A stretch of 64,000 nt of DNA from Syntrophales bacterium (GTDB lineage: Bacteria > Desulfobacterota > Syntrophia > Syntrophales > UBA2210). Shown here piece after piece: positions 33,001 to 39,000 of this stretch. Position 1 is the stretch's first letter, and each line of letters starts with the position of its first letter. A program made the position numbers. The stretch covers positions 352,001 to 416,000 of the forward strand of contig CAXXKT010000001.1 of NCBI GenBank assembly GCA_963662405.2. The letters are read 5' to 3'.

Positions 33001-36000
33001 GGGACCATCCAGGCCGCCGACATCGGTCTTGCGGAGCCCTGTTTCGCCCTGGTCCGTCCCCCCGGTCACCATGCCTCCGCGAACAGCGCCTGGGGATTCT
33101 GCTTCTTCAACAACATGGCAATCGCTCTCTCGAAGCTGAAACGGGAAGGAAAAATACAAAAGGCCTTCGTCCTCGACTTCGATCTCCACTTCGGCGACGG
33201 GACCGTCAATATCCTGGGCCACGCGGACTACGTAACCATTTACAATCCGTCGGACCACGACGCGAACGCCTACCTCCGGGGAGTGGAAGAGATGCTCCCC
33301 GCCGATGCGGATATTATCGGGATCTCAGCCGGTTTCGACAATCATCTCGAAGACTGGGGGGGCGTTCTCTCGACCGACGACTACCGGGAGATGGGACGCA
33401 TGGTGCGCGCCGCGAGCCGTACGAGCGGCGGGGGCTGCTTCGCCGTCCTGGAGGGGGGGTACAACCACCGGGTTCTGGGGCACAATGTCATGGCCCTGAT
33501 AGAGGGGCTGGAAGAGTAGGTATCCAAGACATATCGACACAGTATGACGGCGTTCGAGCCGACAATACCTCACGAGTTATCCCAGCATCGTCAGCAAGGG
33601 AGGGAACAATCCATGAAGATACTCAAAAGAATCCTGCAGGGTATCGGCGTACTCATCGGAATCATTATCGTGTATTGTGCGATTATCACGTTCCTCCCCG
33701 GTTTCGAGGTCACGCAGCAGCCCCTGAGTGACGGGAAACAATCGGTCGCACAAGCGGAAGCCGATCTTTCTTCGTTCAGAAAGGATGTGAGCTTCACGGT
33801 TGAGGGAACGACGATCAGCGCGTGGCTCTTCCTGCCGGAGGATCTGTCAGCGAAGGTTCCCTGTATCGTTATGGGGCACGGTTTCGGCGGGACCAAGGAT
33901 ATGGGCCTGGAACGATACGCCCTTCTGTACCGGGATGCCGGCTACGCGGTCCTGGCCTTCGATTACCGCCATTTCGGTCAAAGCGGGGGCGAGCCGAGGC
34001 AGCTCATCTGGATACCCTACCAGCTGGAAGACTGGAAAGCCGCGATCCGATACGTCCGGGGCCTCGAGGAAATCGATCCGGAGAAAATCGCGCTGTGGGG
34101 GACCTCCTTCAGTGGGGGTCACGTAATCGTGACAGCCGCGCAGGACAACCGGCTCGCCTGCGTTGTCGCCCAATGCCCGGGGGTGGACGGTCATGCCTCA
34201 GGGGAAATGTTCGTAAAGAGGGTGGGAATCGGGCATGGGCTTCGCCTGCTCATGCATGGGCAACGTGACCTCATGAGGTCCCTCTTCGGGCTGTCGCCCC
34301 ATAAGATACCCATTGCGGGAAAACCGGGGACGATTGCCTGTTTGAACACGCCGGATGCGTATGACGGCTACCGCAAGACGGTTCCCGACACCTTTATCAA
34401 CGAAGTCTGCGCCCGTATATTGATACGGGGAGGCAAATACCGGCCGGTCAAACATGCAAGCAAAGTCCGCTGTCCGGTCCTCCTCCAGATATGCGAGGAA
34501 GACACCATCATCCCCCTGAGCGCGGCGCAGGAGACGGTCAAAGAGTTGGGGAAATACGGAGAGGCGATCTACTATCCTATCGGTCACTTCGATATCTACC
34601 GGGGGGGTCATTTCGAGGAGGCCCTCAACGATCAACTGGCGTTTTTGAAAAGGCACCTGTAGCTCAGCGCTTCGTGAAGGAGGAATTGTATGCTGAAATC
34701 CATACTGATCTCGGCTTTTATCTCAATAGCGATCTACTTCGGTATCGCCGCCGTCCTGATCCTGAGCGGCATCCCCGATCCGCCTGCGCAGGATGAAAGC
34801 AGCCTCCGATTCGAGGAACTGTTCATCGATTACGAAGGCCTGCCCGATCTGCACCGCTACGAGGCCAGAGACGGGGCGCAGTTATCGTACCGCCATTACC
34901 CTTCCGAATCGAACACGGTCCTGATCCTGTTGCACGGCGCGGGGTATCACAGTCGCTACCTGATGCCCCTGGCCCAATTCATCAGCTCCGAAGGCCTGGC
35001 GCATGTCTACACCCCCGATCTGCGCGGGCACGGACCGGCCCCCACGCGAAGGGGCGATATCGACTACATCGGGCAATACGAGGACGACATCGCCGACCTG
35101 ATTGCCGTGGTCCGGGATCGGCACCCCGATGCCGCACTGATCGTCGGTGGGCACTCCTCCGGCGGCGGGCTGACGATTCGCTTCGCGGGGAGTCGGTACG
35201 GGCGGCAGGCCGACGCCTATCTCCTCCTGACACCCTATCTCAAATACAACGCCCCCACCATGCGCCCCCAATCCGGGGGATGGGCGCAGCCCTTCACGAA
35301 ACGTATCATCGGTCTGGTGCTCCTCAATAATGTGGGAATCCGCTCGTTCAATCACCTGCCGGTCATTCGATTCAATACACCCGAAGAGGCAAGGGACGGG
35401 ACGGAGACCCTGTCGTACACCTACCGGCTCAATACGGCATATGCCCCGAAGAATTACAAAAAGGGACTCAAGGCCATTACACAACCCATCCTGGTCGTGG
35501 CCGGCACCGCCGACGAGGTGTCGTACGCCGATCAATTTGAACCCGTCATCTCACAATACACCGACGCGCAGGTGGAACTACTGGCCGGTGTCACGCACAT
35601 GGGGGTCGTGGTGGGAAGCGAAACCCGACCGGTGATAAAGAAATGGCTGGAAGAACGGTAAAAAGAAAAAGTTCGTAACGGCTTGTAGTATCTTTAAATT
35701 GTGTACCAGACATTTTTTTGAAGCTTAATCAATGTGAAAGGAGGAATGATAAAAAGTCTTCATGAGCTGTGAATTGGGATACACTGTTTGAAACTTTATA
35801 GTTTTGGGCAGCAAGGCTACTGTTCGACATGTTTACTGGTCTTCGAGACCGCAAAGGAGAATGAAGAGCTGTAGCCGCAACATTCAATGATCTTCGAGAT
35901 CGAATAGGAGATTGGGACCAATTCACCTGACAGGCGCTGTCCAAGATGTGAGGAGGCGTTCTATGAAGATGAGTATCGGGGTTGACCTTCACAAGACGCA

Positions 36001-39000
36001 GTTTACCGTTTGTTGTTTGAGTGAAGATCGGAGTGTTCAGGAGTCGGGCATCTACCCGACGACTGATCGAGGTTACCGGGCATTTATCATGAAGGTGTCC
36101 AACTGGAATGAGGGCGGTTACGAGGTCACGGCAGCGGTGGAATCAACAGGGAACACCCGACACTTTCGCAACCGGTTTTTGAAGGCGGGGATTGAGGTCA
36201 AGATAGTGAACACCTTGAAATTCAAGGTTGTAAATGAGTCAGTAAAAAAGACTGACAAGCATGATTCCCGCACATTGGCTGAGTTTCTTGAGAAAGATAT
36301 GCTTCCCGAGTCCATTCTTTGTTCGCAGGAAAGCGAGGACATTCGAAGGCTTCTCAAGTCACGTTCTGTTCTGGTGAAAGCTTTGGTATCCTTGAAAAAC
36401 CAGATACACGGTTTATTGCTTGGATATGGGATAGAGAGTCGGCGGGGACAGCTGCAGAGCAAAAAAGAAAGGCAGCGAATCCTTGACGGTCTCGCGGACC
36501 ATAGGAGTTACGGAAACGCTGCCCGAGCGGTAAAACCGCTTCTTGGTACAATAGACCAAATTGCATCCGAGGTCAAAGGACTTGAGCGCGTATTATCTGA
36601 TCTTGTTTCTGAAGACGAGGATGTTGCTCTGTTGCAAACGATTCCTGGCGTTGGAATAATAACAGCAGCGACGATTCGGGCTTATACCGATGACATCAAC
36701 CGATATGAGAGCGCCAAGCAGTATGCTGCTCATGCCGGTTTGGTACCATGGGTTCAAAACTCCAACAAGACCATTCGCCATGGTCATATTACCAAGCGAG
36801 GCCCCGTGGAACTGAGGACGGCTTTTGTGCAAATGGTAATGGGGATGCTACGGCTTCGGAATAAAACCGATGGATATTGGCTTATGTACAAATACAAAGC
36901 CATGAAAGAGAACAAGGGAACCGGGAAGAGCGTAATAGCGACGGCGCGAAAGATGAGCACTATTGTATATGCCATCTTGAAGAAGGGGGAGCCGTTTGAT
37001 CCATCGAAAATGCTGCCAGACCCGAAATATGTAGAGATGAGTAAGGTTGCGAGGTGTTATGCTTTGGCCGTTTAAATTTTAACCATGGGCCTGTTTGACA
37101 GGCTCTCCATGAATTGACTTTTTATAGGAGGAGGTATTGATGGAACTGAAAGAAGCTATCACGAAGCGGATCAGCGTGAGGGGCTACAGACCGGATCCCG
37201 TTTCCCGGGAGGTCCTGACCGAGATCATTGAGACATCCCTTCGCGCGCCGTCCGCGATGAACGTCCAGCCCTGGGGGATCACCGTTCTTGCCGGCGGACC
37301 TCTGGACCGGTTGCGCGACACGAATATGGAGCTGCTGAAATCGGGCGCGGTTCCCGTTTCGGATTTCGGGCATGCGAAACCGTACGAAGGGGTCTACAAG
37401 GAACGCCAACGCACGCTGGGATTCCAATTATACGGCCTCCTCGGCATTGAGCGGAATGACAAGGCAAAACGAATGGAGTGGACCATGAAGGGGTTTCGGG
37501 GGTTCGACGCACCGGCCATGGTCATCCTGTCGGCCGACAAGGGCCTCGATACCCGGCTCGCCGGTTCCGATATGGGCGGACTCATTCAGACCATCTGTCT
37601 GGTGGCCCTCGAATACGGCCTGGGCACCTGCATCAACGGACAGGGCATCTTCTTCCCCGACGCCGTCAGGACGGTTGCCGGTATTCCGGAATCGCACAAC
37701 ATCTATATCTGTATCGCCATCGGCTATCCCGACTGGGACCATCCGGCGAACAGGCTGGTGAGCGACCGGGAGTCCATTGAAACCGTCACGCGCTGGGTCG
37801 GATTCGATCAATAGAAAACCTTTGGTATCCCGGTAACGGCAAGTCGCCTGTTGAAACGCGGGCCGTGGGGATGAAGAAGGCCAAGGAGATCTGGTACCTG
37901 TGCCGGCGCTACACGGCGAAAGAGGCGCTGGACATGGGACTGGTGAACGCGGTCGTCCCCCCGGACAAACTTGACGAAGAGGTCGCGGCGTGGTGCCGGG
38001 AACTCCTTGAGAAGAGCCCGACCGCCCTCAAGATGCTCAAGTATTCTTTCCACGGGGAGACGGACGGCGTCATGGGAATTTCCAACCTGGGGGTCGGCGG
38101 TCTCAGCATGTATTACGAAACGGACGAATCCCTGGAAGGGAAAACGGCCTTCATGGAGAAGAGAAGACCGGACTACTCGAAATTCCGAGGCAAGTGATTC
38201 GGCAAACCGCGGGAGGAACTCTTCCTCTGATCTTCACAATTACCCAGGATCTTTTTCACTTCTGACAGGAAATCCAGAAAATGTAAACAACGCTACTTTA
38301 TTTCACACTTTCCTGGACTTTGATTCTTCATCACCGGATCAGCCACTGATCAAAGGGGAGTTCCTCCGGTTCGCGGTCGGCGGGGGCCAGTTCGGCGATA
38401 AAGCGTGACGGGACGGCGTCCGCGCTCCAGACGCCCTGGGTCCGGCCCACCAGGGGATGGCAGAAGTAAAGCTGGTCCTTCGCCCGGGTGGTGGCGACAT
38501 AGAAAAGCCGCCGCTCCTCGTCCTCTCCTCCCGGTTCCTTCAGGGCGCGGGCCAGGGGGAACATCCCTTCCGTGCACCAGATCATGAAAACGACCGACCA
38601 CTCGAGGCCCTTGGCCTGGTGGATCGAGCTGAGGACGACCTTGTGATTGTTCTCCTCCGGCCGGTAGGTGGCCTCTTCCTCCGTGATGTTCGTCATCAGG
38701 GCAAGGTCGCTCAGGAAATCCTCGAGCGAGACGAACTCCGATGAGAAGTTCGACAGCTGCCACAGGTCCTCCTCACGCGAGGCCCCGTCCCCGTATTTCT
38801 CCTCCATTCGCTCCCGGTAGCCCCCCTTCAGGATGGCATCGACAATCCGTGTCAGGGCGTGGGAGTTCGCCAGCTCACGGATCGTCTTCAGCGTTTCCCT
38901 GAATCCGTCGATCCCGGCCGCGGCACCCTTCGGGACTTTTTTCATGAACTCGTCGGAAAAGACGATTTCCATGGGTTCTTCCTGAGCGGAGATATACTCC

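Follow-up and report, generated by a model that had tools for sequence, protein, structure and literature searches.

An IS110-family insertion sequence whose predicted guide RNA is probably written for translation starts

Why should an insertion sequence settle repeatedly between a Shine-Dalgarno (SD) sequence and the start codon that it serves? The question is raised by an element in a 64,000-nucleotide stretch of a Syntrophales bacterium genome (the window; contig CAXXKT010000001.1, positions 352,001 to 416,000). The genome-wide survey's note had described a 1387-bp IS110 with nine copies, all located after AAGGAG, whose right end supplies a new SD sequence to the gene downstream. Both observations held when the copies were re-counted, and we asked what directs the element to these sites.

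The element and its nine copies

Nine full-length copies, each of 1387 bp and 99.9–100% identical, are present in the genome, and the left flank is AAGGAG in 9/9 (AAAGGAG in eight, TAAGGAG in one). All nine terminate on the right in TTTATAGGAG and have the same orientation relative to AAGGAG, the AGGAG being common to donor and target. The distances from the right end to the ATG are 9, 6, 6, 5, 7, 5, 8 and 7 nt, with no ATG at the ninth copy (at most 4/7 matches there), so that an ATG lies 5–9 nt downstream in 8/9; this range is as wide as that found for ordinary ribosome-binding sites (RBSs) of the same genome. In seven of the nine copies an ORF of 71 aa or more begins at this ATG. The copy in the window is organized as follows (window positions):

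35737..35743, + strand: host SD sequence AAAGGAG, upstream half of the target (copy comparison, guides)
35744..37130, + strand: insertion sequence, 1387 bp (nine-copy comparison; contig breakpoints at 35737 and 37130)
35744..35748, + strand: left-end donor half GAATG, predicted to be read by the donor-loop guide CATTC (guide covariation)
35749..35758, + strand: left sub-terminal inverted repeat ATAAAAAGTC, overlapping the -10-like box
35750-35755, + strand: -10-like box TAAAAA, TG-extended, of a predicted circle-junction promoter (consensus match only)
35963..37075, + strand: DEDD recombinase, 370 aa (profile and alignment)
37114..37119, + strand: -35-like box TTGACT, 17 nt from the -10-like box after end joining
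37116..37125, + strand: right sub-terminal inverted repeat GACTTTTTAT (end alignment)
37124..37130, + strand: right end ATAGGAG, replacement SD sequence for the downstream gene (copy comparison)
37140..37814, + strand: host nitroreductase gene hit at its RBS, with ATG at spacing 9 and an in-frame TTG at spacing 6

The ends are ambiguous inside the shared AGGAG; with the core AG counted at the left end, the element spans 35742-37128. The final AG of AAAGGAG (CT on the other strand) is the putative crossover core, placed from the guides and a 7+3 end rule. There is no separate target duplication, and a short core is shared, a trait of IS110-family elements. The sub-terminal repeats are perfect over 10 bp here and would be separated by 10 nt at the junction, made up of 7-nt left and 3-nt right extensions with the core AG counted left; across 85 loci the first seven positions match in 84-85, the eighth in 75 and the ninth in 61. 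TTGACT is kept in 99/115 right ends. A promoter and terminator scan of the linear element gave four promoter-like sites against 2.0 expected and one weak terminator-like site against 1.2 expected, none at the right end, and was uninformative. End joints, whether of a circle or an empty site, were absent from the contigs of three DNA runs of one sample, though contigs drop rare forms.

The recombinase contains a RuvC-like DEDD domain (PF01548) and a Tnp domain (PF02371) and scores 228.9 bits against NF033542 (cut-off 140). Residues D8, E60, D98, D101 and S267 align with D11, E60, D102, D105 and S241 of IS621 and are invariant across 30 homologues; the motif GLVPWVQNSN has SN where SG is usual. 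The gene is preceded by 219 nt and followed by 55 nt of non-coding sequence, and the longest antisense ORFs inside the element are of 114 and 87 aa.

Two insertion sites bear on earlier claims. AAAGGAG-N9-ATG at related nitroreductase genes had been taken as the empty site; the arrangement is found at 2/11 homologous loci (L181, 80% identity; L182, 72%), but these are homologues rather than same-allele empty sites, and the upstream flank was not found in seven genomes of the genus. The copy said to lie antisense in mttB does so, splitting a TIGR02369 match into pieces covering positions 3-107 and 108-408, and it still has AAAGGAG-N6-ATG, though no gene starts there.

The ATG enrichment was re-examined against stricter backgrounds. 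The count of 8/9 stands, but the accompanying p of 5e-6 does not, its background (563/3306) being reproducible but too lenient. ATG follows at 426/1199 sites outside gene interiors (p 1.6e-3), at 245/569 that are also AT-rich (p 6.6e-3) and, for AAAGGAG alone, at 102/220 (p 0.011). With fair controls, enrichment in this genome is confirmed at p 0.002-0.01.

Predicted guide loops and the flanks they track

The left end encodes a predicted RNA with a 5' stem-loop and two internal loops, the latter located where the survey's note had placed them:

35776..35925, + strand: predicted two-loop guide RNA region, 5' of the recombinase gene (stem covariation; fold z -1.74 alone)
35828..35834, + strand: putative target guide CATGTTT, complementary to spacer and start codon, AAAC-ATG (CAT conservation; modest spacer covariation)
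35838..35850, + strand: hairpin closing the target loop (alignment columns 105-122)
35853..35859, + strand: putative target guide AAAGGAG, identical to the SD strand and so pairing with the opposite strand (flank covariation)
35881..35885, + strand: putative donor guide CATTC, complement of left end GAATG (covariation)
35889..35901, + strand: hairpin closing the donor loop (columns 160-174; 16 and 14 compensatory changes)
35904..35910, + strand: putative donor guide ATAGGAG, identical to the right end (G-to-A change matched in 88/88)

Compensatory change was found at 19/30 consensus pairs in 42 sequences; an Rfam search with the RNA gave no score near the gathering threshold. In each loop the complement of the top strand comes before the match to the bottom strand. 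The core dinucleotide is present in the two 3' guides only and lies outside the 5' donor guide.

Guide-flank covariation was taken over 143 de-duplicated sites. Within the SD-type clade AGGAG ends 105/109 left flanks, an ATG occurs at 5-9 nt in 96/105 right flanks (73/81 counting single-site loci), and CAT is kept in 99/101 parsed target guides. On the SD side, guide and flank agree at -7 in 72/88 cases (28 when shuffled) and at -6 in 86/88 (68 when shuffled), with no guide-flank signal at -8 and -9. Independent tree pairs at -7 changed the same way in 9.7 and the opposite way in 0.1 of 14 (p 0.004), and the control position -8 was null among the rows listed. The donor guide CATTC matches the left end in 85 and 87 of 88 at its two variable positions. 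The first loop thus covaries with the target and the second with the donor; covariation revealed no guide extension past 7 nt on the SD side or past the ATG. Thirteen records have rewritten guides, and here the flanks are of the CACGGAG/CACAAAG type, ATG is found in 0/10, and in 10/11 the core is followed by CAC at a distance of 1-3 nt. Copies, sites, guide-flank covariation and retargeting are established by sequence comparison. Relatives settle the guide assignment, formerly made from sequence and folding, through covariation, independent tree pairs and natural retargeting.

How the start codon may be read, and competing explanations

We estimate a probability of roughly 80% that the element encodes a bridge recombinase of the IS110 family, with a guide RNA written for translation starts. 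An excised circle would join the ends as TTTTATAGGAG-GAATGATAAAA, making a promoter for RNA and recombinase. The donor loop would read this junction, ATAGGAG on one strand and GAATG on the other, and the target loop would be strict over 7 nt of SD sequence but loose over 7 nt ending in ATG, usually with a 2-nt gap. Crossover in the shared AG core would insert the element, in host-gene sense, between RBS and start codon, and because AGGAG is common to donor and target the host gene would receive a new RBS at unchanged spacing. The host promoter would then read through the guide RNA and recombinase; an excerpt of PMC13626964 reports that IS621 excision is supported by read-through from flanking genes. 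Expression of the RNA, the pairing geometry, the circle and the effect on host gene expression are what we infer from the sequence comparisons.

The commonest spacing is 6, at which the 5' target guide fits best with a gap of 2 nt from the core. At this spacing 64/132 spacer positions match (51 when shuffled); with wobble pairs counted the figures are 75 and 68, an excess that is not significant (368 of 5000 shuffles). At other spacings 48 of 96 match against 36 (3 of 5000 shuffles). For the two guide bases adjoining the hairpin, covariation is absent from the gap-2 register (13 vs 17 and 22 vs 21 of 68) and weak in the gap-1 register (19 vs 14, 197 of 5000). The contiguous 10-nt register AG-TAAAC-ATG, proposed earlier as the usual one, was rejected since the spacing mode is 6 rather than the 5 that it requires and the hairpin-side bases lack gap-2 covariation. 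The 7-nt guide CATGTTT appears instead to pair across an unpaired gap, usually of 2 nt (1-3 being common). Host base composition could add to the spacer-match signal, and ATG-side pairing is weak.

An unlikely alternative is that only the SD half is read by the RNA, the ATG enrichment arising because AGGAG sequences are RBSs, because open, AT-rich DNA is preferred and because harmful insertions are lost. Consistent with this, AT-rich intergenic controls lower the enrichment in this genome to p 0.007-0.011, spacings range over 5-9, matches within the spacer are modest, and half-match insertion is reported for IS621 (10.64898/2026.08.31.748434). However, in genome G301 the spacing peak is far sharper than at real RBSs of that genome, with spacing 6 in 12/15 copies compared to 16/67 AGGAG sites at real gene starts (Fisher 8e-5), and the base before the ATG is A in 9/15 copies compared to 5/29, as its guide predicts. 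The near-invariant CAT of the guides is swapped in retargeted relatives for the complement of the new flank, and spacer matches exceed shuffles at spacings besides 6. Selection alone is insufficient because the antisense mttB copy has its ATG without being at a gene start.

We regard it as very improbable that translation or transcription directs the choice of target, say by recruitment at initiating ribosomes or open complexes, with the guide match secondary. Nearly all sites are real gene starts, as this would predict (an ORF of 60 aa or more opens at 63/74 sites that have sufficient flank); but flanks track the guide base by base, retargeted relatives abandon gene starts, and one copy lies antisense within a gene. 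The idea that the loops are no guides but passively repeat, inside the element, its own ends has a negligible probability: the loops are alike in build, each ending in AGGAG, and the single-sequence fold has a z of -1.74, but the stems covary and the target loop changes together with host DNA beyond the element, which largely refutes it.

Relation to known systems and significance

Target choice by IS900 was reportedly addressed by Doran in 1997. The RBS-targeting habit is already known in the IS110 family from mycobacterial IS900 and from IS116, of an actinomycetotal IS110 subgroup, whose target lies between RBS and start codon as in the Syntrophales element; an excerpt of PMC8141618 gives the IS900 target as RBS plus start codon, with motif CATGNNNNNNTCTCCTT. 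The one IS116 copy examined (L220) has an upstream RNA region in which ATGGTGGTT and CCAGGAG match the site CCAGGAGA-ACCACC-ATG, so that its guide also spells RBS and ATG, but pairs without a gap. Whereas the Syntrophales element is in sense at all gene-start sites, IS116 and IS900 are inserted antisense to their host genes, and the hed ORF expected on the host strand in that group has no element-spanning antisense counterpart here; their recombinases, of about 400 rather than 370 aa, are ~21% identical to this one. A single clade of RBS-targeters including IS116/IS900 was rejected (AU p 1e-5, 34 rows), and with it a common origin.

With IS621/ISCro4 (Durrant 2024; 8WT6, 9T56) the element shares a DEDD and serine recombinase (about 27% identity), a CT core and, by prediction, a left-end RNA with 5' stem-loop and two internal loops and a promoter across the joined ends. 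It differs in its SN rather than SG motif and longer sub-terminal repeats, and the guide order is reversed on the sense strand, so that donor and target would be read on the opposite strand. In IS621 the 5' loop side pairs with the bottom strand and the 3' side with the top, the core takes part in all four pairings and the 5' guide is contiguous over 8-9 nt, whereas the 5' guides here lack a clear core.

The sub-terminal repeats, 7-nt left and 3-nt right extensions, guide order (top-strand complement first) and predicted junction promoter resemble those of IS1111 seekRNA elements (ISEc11, IS4321, ISPa11; Siddiquee 2024). In those elements, however, the long non-coding region lies downstream of the transposase gene, with a few exceptions noted (Siddiquee 2024); the simple two-loop fold is another difference. 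Their repeats are of 11-13 bp and their transposases of 330-350 aa, with GL-P----S(t)G; here the repeats are perfect over 10 bp and the protein has 370 aa and SN. The recombinase falls outside the IS1111 core clade (100/100 support) and joins IS1111 proteins at 61/67, and named plasmid matches to it are mostly of the IS1111 group. ISLin1 of Leptospira has the same ATAGGAG donor guide upstream, but the copy examined differs in its target guide and, judged by eye, does not lie at an RBS.

The Thiospirochaeta plasmid element (NZ_CP035808) is as previously described: a 75%-identical IS110 within AAAGGAG|...|ACTATT-ATG, with both loops and changed hairpin tips. Relatives at 30-35% identity in Calditrichota, Acidobacteriota, Deferrimicrobiota, Planctomycetota and Tardibacter have, by eye, an AAGGAG guide and a site after AAGGAG, and in several of them an ATG follows at 4-7 nt; an RBS target was not seen by eye for the Haloarcula, Methylocystis and Paracoccus elements. 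A phylum-wide protein search of 301 genomes at E 1e-60 matched this genome alone, and of 76 pattern matches in viral contigs none was confirmed. Near-identical ends occur in Spirochaetota, Thermodesulfobacteriota, Bacillota and others, which may be because an SD sequence plus ATG precedes most bacterial genes.

What is new here is sense insertion, a separate recombinase lineage, IS1111-type ends and guide order combined with an upstream two-loop RNA, and apparent gapped pairing. We give even odds to the fuller proposal that a second IS110 lineage, independent and present in several phyla, aims its guide at the universal translation start with a sliding half-guide (strict for SD, reaching ATG across a gap of 1-3 nt, sometimes longer), lands in sense directly after host promoters with read-through expression while returning an RBS, and combines IS1111 ends with a left-end RNA. 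If so, one guide would cover most SD-ATG spacings through gap tolerance built into a bridge recombinase. The element offers an RNA-level explanation of the habit described in 1997, and RBS targeting has arisen at least twice, in opposite orientations. Gapped pairing, if true, would widen the recognition rules of bridge recombinases and bear on off-target prediction, and dropping cargo in sense behind a native promoter with a restored RBS would provide a natural tool for promoter-trap or knock-in work in laboratory bacteria.

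Insertion sites of the element and its relatives

In the Syntrophales genome, AAGGAG precedes all nine 1387-bp copies, each with the right end TTTATAGGAG, and an ATG follows within 5–9 nt in eight, as the genome-wide survey's note had claimed. In seven of the nine this ATG starts an open reading frame of at least 71 aa; the note had placed seven copies at the ribosome-binding site (RBS) of a called gene. The background for the ATG was reproduced (563/3306 sites), but its significance weakened under stricter controls: 426/1199 outside gene interiors (p = 1.6e-3), which were delimited by genes called with a purpose-written codon-score script, 245/569 when sites were also AT-rich (p = 6.6e-3), and p = 0.011 when the control was restricted to AAAGGAG sites. 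AAAGGAG-N9-ATG, which the note described as the empty site of homologous nitroreductase genes, was found in two of 11 such loci. The encoded protein is an intact IS110 recombinase. A GC-rich hairpin lies ahead of the right end (window 37085-37113) and did not register as a terminator in the scan; relatives have hairpins of different sequence in the equivalent place. Contigs of the same sample contain a variant right end (2-nt deletion; compare window 37090-37130) with a different flank and an ATG at spacing 6, probably from a related element of another organism in the sample. The genome holds two further IS110 types, with open frames of 425 aa (2 copies) and 329 aa (5 copies, IS621-like).

C1 128994 and 879849; 159081, 164565, 305385, 1416313; C2 343809: copies of the other IS110 types

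Relatives were obtained with an alignment of 30 homologues among the 120 matches listed, giving 72 loci from genomes and, out of 358 from metagenomes, the best 80. The nine Syntrophales copies, the locus from Thiospirochaeta and all loci of at least 44% identity made 149 records, or 143 after removal of 6 duplicates. Thirteen of the 143 were set apart because their guides lack CAT (L143 was assigned manually); the remaining 130, unparsed records included, form the Shine-Dalgarno (SD) clade, and each count is of the records readable for that part. The left flank ends in AGGAG in 105/109 records and an ATG stands at 5–9 nt in 96/105 sites; with two multi-copy genomes excluded, the latter is 73/81, with spacing 6 in 39/81. 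Named hosts include Spirochaetota (44 loci), Bacillota (5), Thermodesulfobacteriota (3) and five more phyla with one each; MAG binning may have misassigned some of these loci. In L032 a tandem duplication after the stop codon repeats the final 29 nt of the right end; past the second copy the true flank reads AGTGCA-ATG (spacing 6), a site tallied as a miss. GAG is repeated 1–4 times past the right end in L036, L115, L123 and L155, possibly through slippage or as scars of repeated insertion and excision. L050 has a second left end about 115 nt beyond the right end, and in L193 copies of ISLin1 follow one another in tandem, segments of the flank being duplicated.

Guide assignment and retargeted relatives

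The loop roles proposed earlier from sequence and folding are now backed by guide-flank covariation, independent tree pairs, stem covariation and retargeted relatives. With one site counted per multi-copy element, the 3' side of loop 1, the target loop, agrees with the upstream flank at position -7 in 72/88 (shuffled 28.2) and at -6 in 86/88 (shuffled 68.0); at -8 and -9 the same comparison gave chance levels. The guide dinucleotide changed at least 29 times on a 117-protein tree. Among independent pairs differing at -7, the flank changed in the same versus the opposite direction in 9.7 versus 0.1 of 14 for A (p = 0.004), 6.0 versus 0 of 7 for T, 6.8 versus 0 of 8 for C and, not significantly, 3.5 versus 0 of 8 for G; the rows listed for -8 were null. 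Loop 2, the donor loop, covaries with the element's own ends, and 19/30 consensus pairs of the RNA stems covary (42 of 87 available sequences).

L139-L141, L143, L146-L148, L151-L153, L155, L156, L159: retargeted sub-group (13)

The guides of these 13 relatives are of the CACGGAG/CACAAAG and TGTG types and their sites are matching tandem repeats, RBSs having been exchanged for the short intergenic repeats CACGGAG/CACAGAG/CACAAAG. CAC lies 1–3 nt past the inferred AG crossover dinucleotide in 10/11 sites, and none of 10 sites has the downstream ATG. The sub-group branches amid Treponema-type elements. More than one switch of target may have occurred, because the SD-targeting L045, L145, L149 and L158 branch within or beside it (SH 93-99). 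L067, a distant Acidobacteriaceae relative, is another natural retargeting as judged by eye: its guide is CAATGAG, its flank is ACAATGAG, and its 5' guide is the gap-free complement of the right flank AGTCGT.

Probable reading of the start codon

In G301, another genome with many copies, spacing 6 occurs in 12/15 copies versus 16/67 true gene starts with AGGAG, taken from 400 kb of its sequence (Fisher 8e-5). The base directly before the ATG is A in 9/15 copies versus 5/29, in agreement with the prediction from the guide CATTTTT. The antisense copy in mttB was confirmed.

C1 2111748-2114691: mttB, a homologue of trimethylamine methyltransferase that scores under the family cut-off, cleanly split by copy 3

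AAAGGAG-N6-ATG is present there, and because the frame from this ATG is 11 codons long, the site does not count as the start of a gene. Between guide and spacer, 64/132 bases match at spacing 6 (51 shuffled) and 48/96 at other spacings (36 shuffled). A less likely alternative is that the guide does not read the ATG. The spacer match of only about half fits this, as do the smaller excess once wobble pairs are included, the confounding effect of host base composition, the broad spacings among the Syntrophales copies and the one copy without an ATG. By analogy with loop 2, the target guide would be the 7 nt preceding the hairpin-adjacent trinucleotide. A contiguous 7-nt guide predicts spacing 4, so the observed mode of 6 suggests a gapped pairing geometry with about 2 unpaired DNA bases.

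Lineage and relation to other RBS-targeting elements

The ends carry an inverted repeat of 10 bp, with 10 nt between its arms once the ends are joined (7+3); the junction reads TTGACT-17-TAAAAA, and TTGACT is present in 99/115 right ends. According to PMC11187229, IS1111 elements are marked by the 7+3 rule and by a top-strand complement that comes first, both shared by the element, whereas its upstream RNA is an IS110 trait, with a few exceptions reported. The guide order is opposite to that of IS621 as described in bioRxiv 2024.01.24.577089. In a 34-protein tree the clade and relatives of 33-35% identity form their own branch (94/90), outside both the IS1111 core and the IS621/ISEc20/IS116 branch.

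Window 36755-36766, residues 265-268: S-N catalytic loop

S-N replaces the family's S-G in 19 of 20 readable clade proteins, including relatives of 33% identity, and L054 has S-D; the S-N loop is a possible clade marker.

The IS900 target was reportedly the subject of work by Doran in 1997. PMC8141618 gives this target as CATGNNNNNNTCTCCTT and describes hed as a host-dependent ORF opposite in strand to the transposase. The IS116 copy examined lies antisense within CCAGGAGA-ACCACC-ATG. Both halves of this site are spelled out in the region upstream in the element, so an RBS-plus-ATG guide is common to the IS900/IS116 group and this element. A single clade of RBS-targeters was rejected (AU p 1e-5; few references, LG+G4), pointing to convergence between these lineages. 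Excision of IS621 is supported by read-through from flanking genes (PMC13626964); similar help might explain the element's sense orientation.

Our searches, which covered few subscription papers or ISfinder entries, found no paper linking bridge RNA guides with RBS targeting. Term searches of the available text of PMC11208160, 10.1101/2025.10.25.684509 and 10.64898/2026.10.21.760802 found no such link; the clade may be covered by supplementary figures, those of PMC11187229 or those of the COMPASS preprint with its 86 bridge RNA models. The comparative evidence for a real RBS-targeting IS110 element is good, and this reading is well supported. The habit of targeting an RBS plus start codon is already known; the lineage, the orientation, the hybrid layout and the gapped pairing, which is itself probable, are new as far as our literature searches reach.
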